This document shows, in pieces, positions 1,407-5,442 of a stretch of 6,595 nucleotides of DNA. Source of the stretch: a virus (taxonomy: Duplodnaviria > Heunggongvirae > Uroviricota > Caudoviricetes); the IMG/VR virus record IMGVR_UViG_2778261689_000002, one strand, 5' to 3'. How positions within the stretch are numbered: position 1 is the stretch's first letter; every line of letters starts with the position of its first letter. The translations under genes and the position numbers were made by a program. Under the pieces are notes generated by a model. That model was not told the DNA's origin. It searched no databases and saw nothing but the letters and a program-made list of their open reading frames with translations.

Positions 1407-1423
1407 TGAAACAGGTGAGTTGA

Positions 1424-1458
1424 GTTCAAACTGTAGTACAATTCTCTCCAGTTTGAAC
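1424..1458. repeat. Perfect 10-bp inverted repeat (GTTCAAACTG / CAGTTTGAAC) with a 15-nt spacer, directly upstream of the emrE ribosome-binding site.
   Basis: Read directly: 1424..1433 is the reverse complement of 1449..1458. No T-tract follows on either strand, so it is not a typical intrinsic terminator. Confidence 0.7.
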
Positions 1459-1473
1459 AGGAAAGAATATGCT

Positions 1474-1806
1474 ATGAACCCTTATATTTATCTTGGTGGT
1501 GCAATACTTGCAGAGGTCATTGGTACAACCTTAATGAAGTTTTCAGAAGGTTTTACACGGTTATGGCCATCTGTTGGTACAATTATTTGTTATTGTGCAT
1601 CATTCTGGTTATTAGCTCAGACGCTGGCTTATATTCCTACAGGGATTGCTTATGCTATCTGGTCAGGAGTCGGTATTGTCCTGATTAGCTTACTGTCATG
1701 GGGATTTTTCGGCCAACGGCTGGACCTGCCAGCCATTATAGGCATGATGTTGATTTGTGCCGGTGTGTTGATTATTAATTTATTGTCACGAAGCACACCA
1801 CATTAA
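1474..1806 (+). CDS. emrE: Small multidrug resistance (SMR) efflux transporter EmrE, 110 aa.
   Basis: MNPYIYLGGAILAEVIGTTLMKFSEGFTRLWPS...LLSRSTPH matches E. coli EmrE with four predicted TM helices. The ORF track starts at an upstream TTG (1420); the ATG at 1474 follows an AGGAAAG ribosome-binding site and gives the canonical 110-aa protein. Confidence 0.95.
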   Translation: MNPYIYLGGAILAEVIGTTLMKFSEGFTRLWPSVGTIICYCASFWLLAQTLAYIPTGIAYAIWSGVGIVLISLLSWGFFGQRLDLPAIIGMMLICAGVLIINLLSRSTPH

Positions 1807-1835
1807 AATAATTTGTTTCTAAACGACTAAAATAT

Positions 1836-1878
1836 GGAGGCTCTTATATTTATATGAGCCTCGTTTTATGCTTTTTGT
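1836..1878 (+). terminator. Candidate rho-independent terminator downstream of emrE.
   Basis: Stem GAGGCTC (1837..1843) pairs with GAGCCTC (1856..1862) across a 12-nt AT loop, followed by GTTTTATGCTTTTTG. Confidence 0.55.
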
Positions 1879-2060
1879 TAATGTCTTTATTTTTTATGTA
1901 TTCTTTTGTGCTTTCAAGATTATGGCGTAAGAAAATTGCAATACGATTATTGTTGTATATTCAAGATAATGTGACCTTAATTGTCTTTTTAAATAAAAAA
2001 TAAACAAAAATTATATCCCACCACTAAGGTTTATAAAAGCATACGTTAGCAGGTGTCACC

Positions 2061-3587
2061 ATGAAAAAAGCCATAGCATATATGCGATTTTCATCACCAG
2101 GTCAGATGTCTGGCGACTCATTAAACCGACAGAGAAGACTTATTGCTGAATGGTTAAAGGTAAATAGTGATTATTATCTTGATACCATAACATATGAAGA
2201 TTTAGGATTAAGTGCATTCAAAGGAAAGCATGCACAATCAGGAGCTTTTTCGGAATTTTTAGATGCTATAGAGCATGGTTATATATTGCCAGGAACTACA
2301 TTGTTAGTTGAAAGTCTGGACAGACTTTCAAGAGAAAAAGTCGGTGAAGCGATTGAACGTCTGAAATTGATTTTGAATCACGGTATTGATGTTATAACTC
2401 TTTGCGACAATACAGTCTATAATATTGACTCTTTGAATGAGCCATATTCATTAATAAAAGCCATACTTATAGCACAAAGGGCAAATGAAGAAAGCGAGAT
2501 AAAGTCAAGTCGGGTTAAATTATCATGGAAGAAAAAACGGCAGGATGCACTGGAATCAGGTACGATTATGACGGCGTCTTGTCCGAGATGGCTCTCCTTA
2601 GATGACAAAAGAACGGCTTTTGTTCCAGACCCCGACAGGGTGAAAACTATTGAGCTAATTTTTAAACTCAGGATGGAAAGGCGCTCATTGAATGCAATAG
2701 CCAAGTATTTAAATGATCATGCTGTAAAGAATTTCTCAGGAAAAGAAAGTGCATGGGGACCTTCTGTAATTGAAAAATTATTAGCGAATAAAGCTCTGAT
2801 AGGTATTTGCGTACCTTCATATCGTGCAAGAGGGAAAGGGATAAGTGAAATCGCTGGCTATTATCCCAGAGTCATATCAGATGATTTGTTTTACGCTGTA
2901 CAGGAAATTCGGTTGGCACCTTTTGGTATTAGCAATAGTAGCAAGAATCCTATGCTAATAAATCTACTTCGAACAGTTATGAAGTGTGAGGCTTGTGGTA
3001 ATACCATGATTGTTCATGCGGTATCTGGAAGTTTGCATGGCTATTATGTTTGTCCGATGAGAAGATTACATCGATGTGACAGGCCATCAATAAAAAGAGA
3101 TTTGGTTGATTATAATATCATTAATGAATTGCTTTTTAATTGTAGCAAAATTCAACCAGTTGAAAACAAGAAAGATGCTAATGAAACTTTAGAGTTAAAA
3201 ATTATTGAGCTTCAGATGAAAATTAATAATTTAATCGTTGCATTGTCTGTCGCGCCTGAAGTTACCGCTATAGCAGAGAAAATAAGACTATTAGATAAGG
3301 AATTACGAAGGGCTTCGGTATCATTGAAAACTTTGAAGAGTAAAGGTGTAAATTCATTCAGTGATTTTTATGCTATTGACTTAACCAGTAAAAATGGACG
3401 AGAGTTATGCCGTACACTTGCCTATAAAACATTCGAAAAAATCATAATTAATACGGATAATAAAACCTGTGATATCTATTTTATGAATGGCATTGTTTTT
3501 AAACACTATCCTTTAATGAAAGTAATATCCGCCCAGCAGGCGATAAGTGCTCTCAAATATATGGTTGATGGTGAGATTTATTTCTAA
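2061..3587 (+). CDS. ybcK: Large serine recombinase, 508 aa, with resolvase-type catalytic domain, recombinase domain, Cys4 zinc ribbon and coiled-coil segment.
   Basis: N-terminus AIAYMRFSSPGQ resembles the resolvase Y-x-R-x-S motif, with the nucleophile probably Ser11. LLVESLDRLSRE matches the conserved D-R-x-x-R segment. CEACGN...YYVCPMRRLHRCD is a C-x2-C...C-x6-C zinc ribbon, followed by a heptad-like stretch (LELKIIELQMKINNLIVAL...). AGGTG ribosome-binding site before the ATG at 2061. Confidence 0.9.
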   Translation: MKKAIAYMRFSSPGQMSGDSLNRQRRLIAEWLKVNSDYYLDTITYEDLGLSAFKGKHAQSGAFSEFLDAIEHGYILPGTTLLVESLDRLSREKVGEAIERLKLILNHGIDVITLCDNTVYNIDSLNEPYSLIKAILIAQRANEESEIKSSRVKLSWKKKRQDALESGTIMTASCPRWLSLDDKRTAFVPDPDRVKTIELIFKLRMERRSLNAIAKYLNDHAVKNFSGKESAWGPSVIEKLLANKALIGICVPSYRARGKGISEIAGYYPRVISDDLFYAVQEIRLAPFGISNSSKNPMLINLLRTVMKCEACGNTMIVHAVSGSLHGYYVCPMRRLHRCDRPSIKRDLVDYNIINELLFNCSKIQPVENKKDANETLELKIIELQMKINNLIVALSVAPEVTAIAEKIRLLDKELRRASVSLKTLKSKGVNSFSDFYAIDLTSKNGRELCRTLAYKTFEKIIINTDNKTCDIYFMNGIVFKHYPLMKVISAQQAISALKYMVDGEIYF

Positions 3588-3785
3588 ATAATGATCTCGG
3601 ATTTTAAGTTATGCTATGGTGATAAAGTGCAAGACAGAATTAATTATCTTTGACGAAACTTAATGGGTAATTACTTTGTTTGCTCCCACAAGCGAGTTTT
3701 GTACGGCTGTATTGGGGTAGTAAATGAGCTATACAATCTTAATCATTTGTTAGGTGAGAACTCTTGGTCGCAGATTCAAATACTG

Positions 3786-3835: not shown

Positions 3836-3845
3836 GAATGGTAGG

Positions 3846-3877
3846 TTAAAAAATAACACCGACTTTCGTAGGTGTTA
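3846..3877 (-). terminator. Candidate minus-strand intrinsic terminator facing the ybcK-proximal palindrome.
   Basis: On the minus strand, stem UAACACC / GGUGUUA (plus coordinates 3854..3860 and 3871..3877) with a 10-nt loop is followed by UUUUUUAA (complement of 3846..3853). Confidence 0.4.
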
Positions 3878-3968
3878 CTAATAATAAAGCAGAGTTTTTA
3901 GATAGTATCAATGTGCTTTGTGTATATTGTGGCAAATAATTGGGTTGGGGGTACAATTGTGATTGCTT

Positions 3969-3998
3969 TTGCATGAACATTGCGCCTTTATGCATAAT
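3969..3998 (+). promoter_or_regulatory. Candidate sigma-70 promoter for the ybcL-ybcM unit (TTGCAT, 18-nt spacer, CATAAT).
   Basis: -35 TTGCAT at 3969..3974 and -10 CATAAT at 3993..3998, about 55 nt upstream of the ybcL ATG. Consensus matching by eye only. Confidence 0.4.
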
Positions 3999-4051
3999 GA
4001 GATAAAGGAATATCAAATAAAATAACGATAGGTCATAACAAAGAGGTTTTT

Positions 4052-4603
4052 ATGAAAACACTTATCGTTTCAACTGTATTGGCATTCATAACATTTTCTG
4101 CGCAGGCTGCAGCATTTCAGGTCACTAGTAATGAAATAAAAACAGGAGAGCAACTTACAACGTCTCATGTCTTTTCTGGATTTGGGTGTGAAGGTGGTAA
4201 TACATCGCCCTCATTAACCTGGTCTGGTGTTCCTGAAGGTACCAAAAGCTTTGCCGTAACTGTATATGATCCAGATGCACCTACAGGCAGTGGTTGGTGG
4301 CATTGGACTGTTGTTAATATTCCAGCAACAGTAACATATTTGCCCGTTGATGCAGGGAGACGTGATGGAACAAAACTGCCGACTGGTGCTGTTCAAGGCC
4401 GAAATGATTTTGGCTATGCTGGGTTTGGTGGCGCATGTCCTCCTAAAGGAGATAAACCACATCATTACCAGTTTAAAGTATGGGCTCTAAAAACTGAAAA
4501 GATTCCTGTAGATTCTAACTCCAGCGGAGCGTTAGTTGGTTATATGCTTAATGCTAATAAAATCGCAACCGCTGAGATAACACCAGTTTATGAGATAAAG
4601 TAG
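4052..4603 (+). CDS. ybcL: Secreted/periplasmic PEBP-family protein (phosphatidylethanolamine-binding / RKIP-like), 183 aa with an N-terminal signal peptide.
   Basis: N-terminus MKTLIVSTVLAFITFSAQAAA is a typical Sec signal with an A-x-A cleavage site. DPDAPTGSGWWHW and the PHHY motif are hallmarks of the bacterial PEBP (YbhB/YbcL) family. AGAGG ribosome-binding site at 4042..4046. Confidence 0.9.
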   Translation: MKTLIVSTVLAFITFSAQAAAFQVTSNEIKTGEQLTTSHVFSGFGCEGGNTSPSLTWSGVPEGTKSFAVTVYDPDAPTGSGWWHWTVVNIPATVTYLPVDAGRRDGTKLPTGAVQGRNDFGYAGFGGACPPKGDKPHHYQFKVWALKTEKIPVDSNSSGALVGYMLNANKIATAEITPVYEIK

Positions 4604-4612
4604 GGTGAGAGT

Positions 4613-5410
4613 ATGCTGGCAAGAGGTAAGACTAACTTAAAGATCGAAGAAATACGGATGCATAAACATCATGAGATTCATAGGGTTAAGCCTCTTATGC
4701 CAGCTTTGTGTCGTATCCGTCAGGGAAAGAAAGTTATCAATTGGGAGACGCATACTTTAACTGTTGATAATAATCAAATAATATTATTTCCTTGTGGTTA
4801 TGAATTTTATATTGAGAATTATCCTGAAGCAGGGCTTTATCTTGCAGAAATGCTTTACTTACCCATTGATTTAATTGAGAGTTTCCAAAAACTTTATACG
4901 GTAACTGATCAAATACGTAACAAAACAAGTTTCTTTTTACCTCAGAATCCTGAGTTAATATATTGTTGGGAGCAACTAAAAACATCTGTTTCCCGAGGCT
5001 TCTCAACTAAAATTCAGGAGCACTTAGCAATGGGCGTTCTACTTTCGTTAGGAGTGAATCATGTTAATCATTTACTTTTATCATATAGTAAACAATCATT
5101 GATAAGTCGTTGTTATAACCTGCTGCTATCCGAACCCGGCACAAAATGGACAGCAAACAAGGTTGCTCGATATCTCTACATTTCTGTTTCTACATTACAT
5201 CGCCGTCTAGCAAGCGAGGGGGTAAGTTTCCAAAGTATACTGGACGATGTGAGGTTAAATAATGCGTTGTCTGCTATACAAACGACGGTAAAACCTATAA
5301 GCGAGATTGCCAGAGAAAATGGTTATAAGTGTCCTTCTCGTTTTACTGAAAGATTTCATAATCGTTTTAATATAACACCAAGAGAGATAAGAAAAGCTTC
5401 CAGAGAGTAA
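4613..5410 (+). CDS. ybcM: AraC/XylS-family transcriptional regulator, 265 aa, with a C-terminal double helix-turn-helix.
   Basis: The C-terminal ~100 aa ([47 protein letters not shown]...[32 protein letters not shown]) has the AraC-type HTH signature. It starts 9 bp after the ybcL stop, so the two are probably co-transcribed. Confidence 0.85.
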
Positions 5411-5442
5411 AAGTGTTTTAAGAAGGAGCAATTCTATCGATT

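Follow-up and report, generated by a model that had tools for sequence, protein, structure and literature searches.

The window analysed here is a 6,595-nt stretch of the tailed-phage record IMGVR_UViG_2778261689_000002 (IMG/VR; all coordinates refer to this stretch), which matches the DLP12-type lambdoid prophage of Escherichia coli K-12 and its relatives with 99-100% identity. Open reading frames, Pfam matches and the RefSeq annotation of equivalent loci give the gene order exonuclease remnant, truncated P, ren, emrE, ylcJ, ybcK, ybcL, ybcM, ylcH, ybcN, ninE, and ybcO. The emrE-ybcK-ybcL-ybcM segment is a well-known part of the well-studied E. coli DLP12 prophage; ybcK, listed among the sixteen site-specific recombinases of E. 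coli K-12 (PMC5426353), is a known gene, and the kind of system is known too. The question addressed is how the block between ren and the nin genes was put together and what part the large serine recombinase encoded by ybcK has in it. The features of the block and of its right edge are the following.

1376..5441, no strand: region read as a cargo hotspot, K-12/DLP12 allele (emrE, ylcJ-ybcK, spacer, ybcL-ybcM), from GC content, junctions and variant survey
1424..1458, plus strand: inverted repeat/hairpin in the emrE leader, 10-nt arms, 15-nt spacer, -13.4 kcal/mol
1474..1806, plus strand: emrE, small multidrug resistance transporter (PF00893, 121.5 bits)
1837..1862, plus strand: hairpin followed by a U-rich tract, likely the intrinsic terminator of emrE (-14.0 kcal/mol, z -3.15)
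1854..2003, plus strand: ylcJ, small hydrophobic protein of 49 aa (PF23688, 122.6 bits)
2061..3587, plus strand: ybcK, intact large serine recombinase of 508 aa (Pfam, alignment, fold, dN/dS)
3597..3909, no strand: 313-bp spacer specific to the K-12-type arrangement, in which ybcK is joined to ybcL (675 genomes, always single copy)
3786..3835, no strand: inverted repeat, perfect 13-nt arms, 24-nt spacer (-18.9 kcal/mol, z -3.65, as RNA)
4052..4603, plus strand: ybcL, periplasmic PEBP/Raf-kinase-inhibitor-like protein (PF01161, 144.5 bits)
4613..5410, plus strand: ybcM, AraC-family regulator with an AraC helix-turn-helix (HTH) domain (PF12833, 61.5 bits)
5442..5503, plus strand: start of the conserved phage backbone, with an identical junction under seven cargos
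5475..5503, plus strand: inverted repeat/GC-rich hairpin of the backbone, 10-nt arms, 9-nt spacer (-19.7 kcal/mol, z -3.61)

The initial annotation described an AT-rich foreign block in the ren-nin interval, and the GC profile bears this out: the GC content is 0.28-0.46 between about 1400 and 5450, clearly below the 0.50-0.57 of the flanks. The edges given for it, 1410 and 5420, were close, but comparative mapping places them at about 1376, within the last codons of ren, and at 5441/5442. Its gene content (emrE, ybcK, ybcL, and ybcM) was recognised correctly, but two small genes were overlooked, ylcJ and, beyond the right edge, ylcH (5527-5628). Comparison of the locus with those of other E. 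coli prophages yielded variants without the block and showed that all the DNA between 1375 and 5442 is replaceable. Seven cargo classes end in one right junction at 5442 (within a base or two), and the left junction of the ren-bearing cargo variants is at 1375, every one of them diverging after this position. Besides the K-12 type, the cargos are three small open reading frames (ORFs) in L015, a TIR-domain protein in L016, and emrE-ylcJ-ybcK followed by an alpha/beta hydrolase (L003, phage 4A7), by a P22AR_C protein and a hypothetical protein (L005), or by just 335 bp (L002, the short form of O157); in L004, which carries a SIR2 protein, ren is also replaced and the left junction lies at 1107. 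The SIR2 and TIR cargos match PADLOC defence-system models (SIR2 families, E 5e-63). Because the recombinase-free SIR2, TIR and small-ORF cargos share these edges, the edges belong to the hotspot and not to a ybcK element. The right junction directly precedes a palindrome, a promoter-like element and the hairpin at 5475-5503, all of the backbone.

The locus thus has unrelated gene sets between the same conserved flanks, an atypical GC content, and transcription signals of its own (the hairpin after emrE; the leader terminator described in PMC4150792), which are the marks of an accessory-gene (moron) hotspot. Such accessory and defence hotspots of temperate phages are known from the lambda nin and b regions and from P2 and P4 (PMC9122126); the ren-ylcH interval shares with them genes of atypical composition, own signals, identical junctions under unrelated cargos, and some defence-like alleles, and differs from them in having one long-lived allele with a recombinase gene. 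The position between ren and ylcH/ybcN of DLP12-type phages is not among the hotspots described in the literature searched. We consider it probable that the block represents one of the alleles found at a hypervariable hotspot for accessory genes, that it is a mosaic rather than one element, and that its cargo was not imported by YbcK. A sharply bounded ren-ylcH hotspot that also carries SIR2 and TIR genes would be useful for mining phage-borne accessory and defence genes, and ruling out YbcK as the builder of the emrE-ybcL-ybcM block would remove an attractive but wrong story.

The assortment of the genes of the block was surveyed in 5426 complete E. coli genomes and in 80 IMG/VR contigs bearing ybcK; the matches of the IMG/VR scan were all E. 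coli ybcK of 97-100% identity, with no other genera. ybcK is present in 1427 of the genomes and full length in 1400 of these 1427, while the K-12 spacer (3597-3909) occurs in 675 genomes, always in the same context. ybcL-ybcM is far more widespread: it was found in 3258 genomes, as the K-12 type in 672 and as a 90-95% identical copy in 2586. In the opened examples of the latter class emrE-ybcL-ybcM stands between fliE and yedK, with neither ybcK nor a prophage (L001:8001-10131; L118:3597-5456), and about 21 bp take the place of window 1813-3909; similarity matches elsewhere hold emrE, ybcL, and ybcM within a 2.1-kb span. From the identity class and three annotated or mapped examples we infer that all 2586 genomes have emrE-ybcL-ybcM without ybcK. 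The fliE-locus copy retains 165 nt of phage backbone (window 5441-5605) on its right side, for which reason it is read as a stripped prophage remnant and not as the source of the phage genes. About half of the ybcK carriers have ybcK without ybcL-ybcM.

In the viral contigs the order ren>emrE>ylcJ>ybcK is invariant wherever upstream sequence is present, ylcJ preceding ybcK in every one of them. Between ybcK and the backbone lie at least 11 different lengths of DNA, with at least 9 distinct cargos (of the lengths, 2593 and 3190 are due to IS insertions, and 1190/1191 and 1256/1257 are near-identical pairs), and the breakpoints 3' of ybcK are staggered, at about +9, +55, +212, +283, +326, +417-428, and +486. 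Variants lacking the block exist, but a clean empty site joining emrE-ylcJ to the backbone was found in none of the 5426 genomes; the sole near-empty site, in a single genome, is a random deletion starting inside ybcK.

Some junctions keep traces of how they arose. A diverged remnant of a second emrE 3' end, together with 38 downstream bases (38 nt, 84%), stands before the hydrolase cassette of L003, and because these 38 nt recur beside a second emrE remnant, the 38 nt that follow emrE in the window were assigned to the emrE module. In two other genera a YbcK-like gene is flanked by a diverged partial duplicate of the phage gene next to it, of the 5' end of a DUF1367 gene in L018 (200 nt at 85%) and of the 3' part of P in L049 (384 nt at 76%). 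Conservative site-specific recombination would not leave such diverged flanking duplicates and staggered breakpoints, which therefore point to illegitimate or homologous exchange between related phages. We propose that the block consists of three or more independently assorting modules: emrE together with its leader and terminator, ylcJ-ybcK, and ybcL-ybcM, with a K-12-specific spacer as the link. The mosaic would have arisen through recombination between related phages, both illegitimate and, in the conserved flanks, homologous. The ybcK segment 1813-3886 was also considered as a self-contained mini-element and rejected: its junctions show AATAAT microhomology only, and its ends are not inverted repeats.

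That ybcK encodes a complete large serine recombinase, as initially annotated, is agreed upon by domains, catalytic residues, zinc cysteines, and predicted fold. YbcK has a Resolvase domain (PF00239, 69.1 bits, cut-off 23.3), a Recombinase domain (PF07508, 53.9 bits, cut-off 21.1) and a Zn_ribbon_recom domain (PF13408, 33.0 bits, cut-off 25.3). In an alignment of 24 homologues reaching down to 28% identity, R9, S11, Q15, D87, R88, and R91 and the cysteines C309, C312, C331, and C339 are invariant. The AlphaFold model (pLDDT 80) shows long helices at 368-395 and 401-430; its top Foldseek matches are the serine integrase-att complexes 9DXD/9DXH, Bxb1 (9IU2) and PhiC31 (9TEP), with E values of 3e-18 to 6e-13, and the profile of the YbcK family matches the C-terminal domain of the A118 integrase (4KIS) with E 7e-16. 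A single-sequence search with YbcK against solved structures returned no large serine recombinase at E<0.01; it is the profile and fold searches that relate YbcK to the characterised enzymes A118, Bxb1, and PhiC31. As judged from sequence and model, YbcK is a structurally complete large serine recombinase. It shares with the A118/LI, Bxb1, PhiC31, and TP901-1 integrases the resolvase catalytic domain, the recombinase domain and the zinc ribbon with an embedded coiled-coil, together with the nucleophilic Ser of an R-x-S sequence, a D-R-x-x-R motif and four zinc cysteines, and it would still be a catalytically competent site-specific recombinase. Unlike the genes of these integrases, ybcK is not at the end of an element and has no recognisable att site beside it, and no recombination directionality factor is known for YbcK.

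The phages that carry ybcK also differ from those of the serine integrases in integrating by a tyrosine integrase and an excisionase, and the earlier statement that the hosts of ybcK use tyrosine integrases holds. The complete phages 4A7, 1W, Turner, and PhiR34_1 all carry ybcK at the same place, and the two that were opened, 4A7 and PhiR34_1, also hold a tyrosine integrase gene, in 4A7 as int with an annotated xis (excisionase) beside an icd fragment and in PhiR34_1 at the phage end. In both, ybcK lies in the nin region 8-10 kb away from the int gene, which is not the position of an element's own integrase gene, at the edge and no more than about 100 nt from an attL/attR junction.

ybcK is kept by purifying selection. 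Four of its alleles differ at no more than 63 of 1527 positions and in only 3-13 residues, with a dN/dS of 0.06-0.16 over a dS of up to 0.17. The gene is both intact and selected for in about a quarter of complete E. coli genomes. These values bear directly on the idea that ybcK is a decaying relic, a leftover integrase gene with no present function. Such a gene might well be silent, as ybcK is in K-12, where a Rho/NusG-dependent terminator in the leader keeps its transcription low (PMC4150792) and where its locus is bound by Hfq-polyphosphate (PMC10954037); DLP12 is itself a defective prophage, and in the literature searched no recombination function, assay or substrate is reported for YbcK. 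A relic is nevertheless extremely improbable given the selection, the full length of the gene in nearly all carriers, its presence in complete, isolated phages, and catalytic residues that are invariant across genera. In K-12 ybcK would normally be silent through arrest of transcription at the leader terminator and through the binding of Hfq-polyphosphate to the locus. The purifying selection favours the other suggestion of the initial annotation, a domesticated recombinase acting on some DNA site, although no DNA site was identified for it.

A truncated homologue from Shigella led to two E. coli elements that show what an element moved by a YbcK relative looks like. A 15.2-kb phage-like element splits mdtG in FDAARGOS_944 (L113:20263-35452), its recombinase gene starting 39 nt from the left junction with a TCAG overlap, and a related 11.0-kb element splits yecE in W444 (L115:19932-30969), its recombinase gene starting 70 nt from the left junction with a 5-nt overlap. 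Both recombinases have the length and architecture of YbcK and are 36-37% identical to it over the full length (E 1e-110 and 3e-106). Comparison with the intact K-12 genes allowed attL, attR, attB, and attP to be mapped and gave a symmetric 46-bp attP of the form GTGTATTTAG-N12-NN-N12-CTAAA(T)ACAC. Both have genes for a Dit-like baseplate protein, a tape measure, an HTH protein and a Dam-type methylase, and the mdtG element has one for a small resolvase too; judged by size and gene content, they may be satellites or defective phages. They provide a worked integrase comparator for this part of the large serine recombinase tree.

The proposal of the initial annotation that ybcK drives a nested integrative element does not hold up against this comparator. 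In such a scheme YbcK would be the integrase of an element inserted in the nin region with emrE and/or ybcL-ybcM and ending near the block edges, which would suit the distinct composition of the block, the intact recombinase, the variable DNA to the right of ybcK beside a constant left side, and the capacity of related recombinases to integrate elements of 11-15 kb. The marks of the mdtG and yecE elements, however, namely an edge gene, a split host ORF, a 4-5 nt overlap and half-sites, are all missing around ybcK: the gene is at least 248 nt from any candidate end (39-70 nt in the real elements), inverted half-sites are absent from the candidate ends, and the half-site motif known from the mdtG and yecE integrases has 6 matches in the window against 7.0 expected, which is not an enrichment. 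The edges are those used by recombinase-free cargos, the cargo is not co-inherited with ybcK (emrE-ybcL-ybcM occurring without it in the identity class of 2586 genomes), the breakpoints are staggered, and in place of a clean empty site the 5426 genomes show only the random deletion inside ybcK. A nested element that delivered emrE, ybcL or ybcM is therefore very improbable.

The window holds four inverted repeats (1424-1458, 3786-3835, 5475-5503, and 2308-2331), above chance when compared with 0.38 expected in block shuffles. The first three had been annotated as perfect palindromes; the repeats are perfect at all three places, but they are really inverted repeats with spacers of 15, 24, and 9 nt. 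As substrates or boundaries of YbcK, the role given to them earlier, they are unconvincing, since none of the three is co-inherited with ybcK. The repeat at 1424-1458 goes with the emrE module, and the fliE-locus copy, which lacks ybcK, retains it with a single mismatch; the repeat at 5475-5503 is backbone and is found under every cargo, and the repeat at 3786-3835 is restricted to the K-12-type spacer with its 675 genomes, other ybcK carriers being without it. The repeat at 2308-2331, inside ybcK, has perfect 10-nt arms around a 4-nt loop, TTGAAAGTCT GGAC AGACTTTCAA, and lies exactly over the codons of the catalytic E-S-L-D-R-L-S. A motif shared by the block edges, CAATTCTNTC, does occur twice; the initial annotation had noted a weak motif at 1438..1448 and 5429..5439, as not convincing on its own. 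It was defined post hoc, and the ybcK-less version of the module does not preserve the right-hand occurrence. The CAATTCT motif was accordingly set aside, and direct or inverted repeats at the block edges amount to short, low-identity matches.

The repeat at 3786-3835, the sole attP-sized symmetric site near ybcK, lies in a spacer that also contains a 48-codon ORF. It might be a site on which YbcK acts, either attP-like, so that K-12-type phages would have two integrases, or regulatory, as in a local DNA switch. Its perfect 13-nt arms and 24-nt spacer were not reached by any shuffle, it lies 200 nt downstream of ybcK in the typical position of an attP, and its 50 bp come close to the symmetric 46-bp attP of the related elements. 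Yet the spacer is present in just 675 of the 1427 ybcK genomes, and ybcK is equally conserved in the others; no second copy was found in E. coli by BLAST with the 326-bp spacer, a search that an isolated diverged site would escape. The sequence of the arms is opposite in orientation to the half-site of the relatives, and inverted repeats are not enriched beside the family genes of other genera, where no comparable repeat was seen (5 observed against 3.0 in shuffles). We regard this role for the repeat as distinctly unlikely. In homologue flanks, variant junctions and the spacer survey no att site co-inherited with ybcK was recognised, which narrows the search: the sites of YbcK would lie outside the short stretch that is inherited with the gene.

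Several observations weigh against the hotspot reading of the block. The size and symmetry of the 3786-3835 repeat, its place 200 nt downstream of ybcK and its absence from shuffles are left unexplained by it. Sharp junctions common to many cargos are also compatible with a site-specific process at the hotspot edges. The variable DNA is always 3' of ybcK while emrE-ylcJ-ybcK is constant, and an element with its recombinase at the left end predicts the same. AATAAT microhomology alone at the junctions fits the entry of ybcK into an emrE-ybcL ancestor as well as its deletion from one. Finally, relatives 36-37% identical to YbcK are true integrases, which leaves room for an integrase role of YbcK.

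The YbcK family extends well beyond E. coli, with homologues 42-60% identical to YbcK spread through the Enterobacterales. Some sit in the nin region of lambdoid phages (Atlantibacter L018 and L030, L109, and Pantoea dispersa L021, whose prophage has a tyrosine integrase at its end), some lie at prophage ends immediately after tail-fibre genes (Yersinia, Atlantibacter, Erwinia, Ewingella, Citrobacter pasteurii, and a Pantoea; the Atlantibacter prophage-end homologue lies 540 bp from ssrA), and some are on large plasmids near repA; often they adjoin umuDC-like, DinI or S24 genes. Two Atlantibacter genes with 78% DNA identity occupy different phage positions and share only the stretch from -68 to near the stop codon, so the mobile unit is essentially the gene; the conserved att-like sequence looked for in homologue flanks came down, in these two contexts, to the shared 68-nt leader. 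We propose that genes of the YbcK lineage travel singly as accessory modules, each with its own short leader, and would settle in the nin region, behind tail-fibre genes and on plasmids.

The position of several homologues directly behind tail-fibre or tail-fibre-assembly genes at prophage ends recalls the Pin, Gin, and Cin invertases. These are small recombinases, whereas the members of the YbcK family are large, with no alternative tail-fibre segment or flanking inverted repeats seen, and E. coli ybcK sits in the nin region. A tail-fibre invertase role for the homologues was rejected, there being neither oppositely oriented alternative segments nor upstream and downstream repeats. In Citrobacter koseri (L019:8145-11530) a YbcK homologue of 50% identity is divergent to a gene for a 555-aa protein with a faint Shufflon_N match, in the setting of a conjugative or mobilisable element with TraD and MobA/MobL; a shufflon link was not adopted from this faint Pfam match.

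Predicted att sites are on record for one member of the family. The representative of cluster10915 in the catalogue of Durrant et al. 2022 is of the YbcK family: three query peptides of the family occur in it, and its start resembles that of P0005, a protein with 61% identity to YbcK. For the cluster, 103 unique proteins are listed, the mobile genetic element (MGE) category is 'Other', and a target gene is not given. The attB and attP predicted for it have a 26-nt identical core, the attB being a conserved unannotated site in all 5426 E. coli genomes, and a protein near-identical to the representative is found in the nin region of a lambdoid prophage. On account of this identical core and of the nin-region context the predicted sites were read as those of the whole prophage (tyrosine-type), and they were not taken as sites of the YbcK family.

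What ybcK is kept for may lie outside integration altogether. One proposal is exaptation, YbcK being retained for interference with incoming phages or mobile elements, or for gene regulation as a DNA-binding protein. The alternative alleles of the hotspot include SIR2 and TIR-domain defence-like genes, a YbcK-like gene adjoins a SIR2_2 gene in L018, and the gene occurs as a single-gene moron in classic accessory positions and is under strong purifying selection though no linked site is evident; moreover, overexpression of ybcK raised sabinene tolerance, and both overexpression and knockout gave phenotypes under sabinene stress (PMC7181518). We find the proposal unlikely: YbcK had no match among 5027 PADLOC models, nor had EmrE, YlcJ, YbcL or YbcM, all catalytic and zinc residues are conserved as in a working recombinase, some alleles of the hotspot have no defence role (emrE, an esterase), and association with a hotspot is weak evidence. 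A broader view, also of low probability, is that recombinases of the YbcK type form a lineage that no longer integrates its own element and persists as trans-acting single-gene modules, either by interfering with rivals or by offering a second integration route (for example through 3786-3835). YbcK itself is best read as a recombinase kept by selection that would act on sites elsewhere; the two DNA sites of its reaction would lie outside the sequence co-inherited with ybcK.

Some homologues have further details in their surroundings. In Ewingella (L032:11934, L033:11935, L025:11932) the shared YbcK-like gene and a 67-aa ORF end exactly at the ORF stop codon, after which the DNA is different in each, host genes in two genomes and an integrase-bearing element in L033; divergence at this point is what one would expect if a mobile element ended there. 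Operator-like palindromes lie 35-60 nt upstream of YbcK-like genes (L025 at about 9930-9950, L032 and L033 at about 9935-9955, and L022, L031, and L034), reading TGTTCA-N5-TGAACA in Ewingella and TGCTCA-N5-TGAGCA in Kluyvera and being imperfect in L031 (Enterobacteriaceae) and in Citrobacter pasteurii L034.

The remaining features of the window flank the block.

1..505, minus strand: remnant of a lambda-type exonuclease gene (exoD'), by a similarity match as lambda exonuclease family protein and the annotation of the equivalent locus
433..1107, plus strand: truncated replication gene P, phage backbone (PF06992, 207 bits)
1104..1406, plus strand: ren, phage backbone, the last ~10 codons (from ~1376) lying already in the variable region
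5527..5628, plus strand: ylcH, 33-codon ORF of the backbone, a 102-nt hypothetical gene overlapping the start of ybcN in every variant
5625..6080, plus strand: ybcN (NinB-like), backbone, by a weak NinB match (21.7 bits, below the cut-off) and the RefSeq annotation of equivalent loci
6518..6595, no strand: end of IS2 (IS3 family), 100% identical to IS2

On the right of the block the backbone opens with the palindrome TTGATTT-N4-AAATCAA (5443-5460), which overlaps a promoter-like TTGATT-17-CATAAT (5443-5471) and is followed by the hairpin and ylcH. The stretch 5443-5503 may serve the nin genes as an operator/promoter or as a terminator region resembling tR2; a search of the window hairpins for known RNA families gave none at E<=1. 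On the left, the junction of the exonuclease remnant with the 5'-truncated P falls at about 501-505 and corresponds to the large deletion in the immunity and replication region of DLP12; most prophage matches to the window begin at 501. At the other end ybcO, which starts at 6243, loses its last codons to the IS2 end at 6518, its frame running on into the IS sequence.

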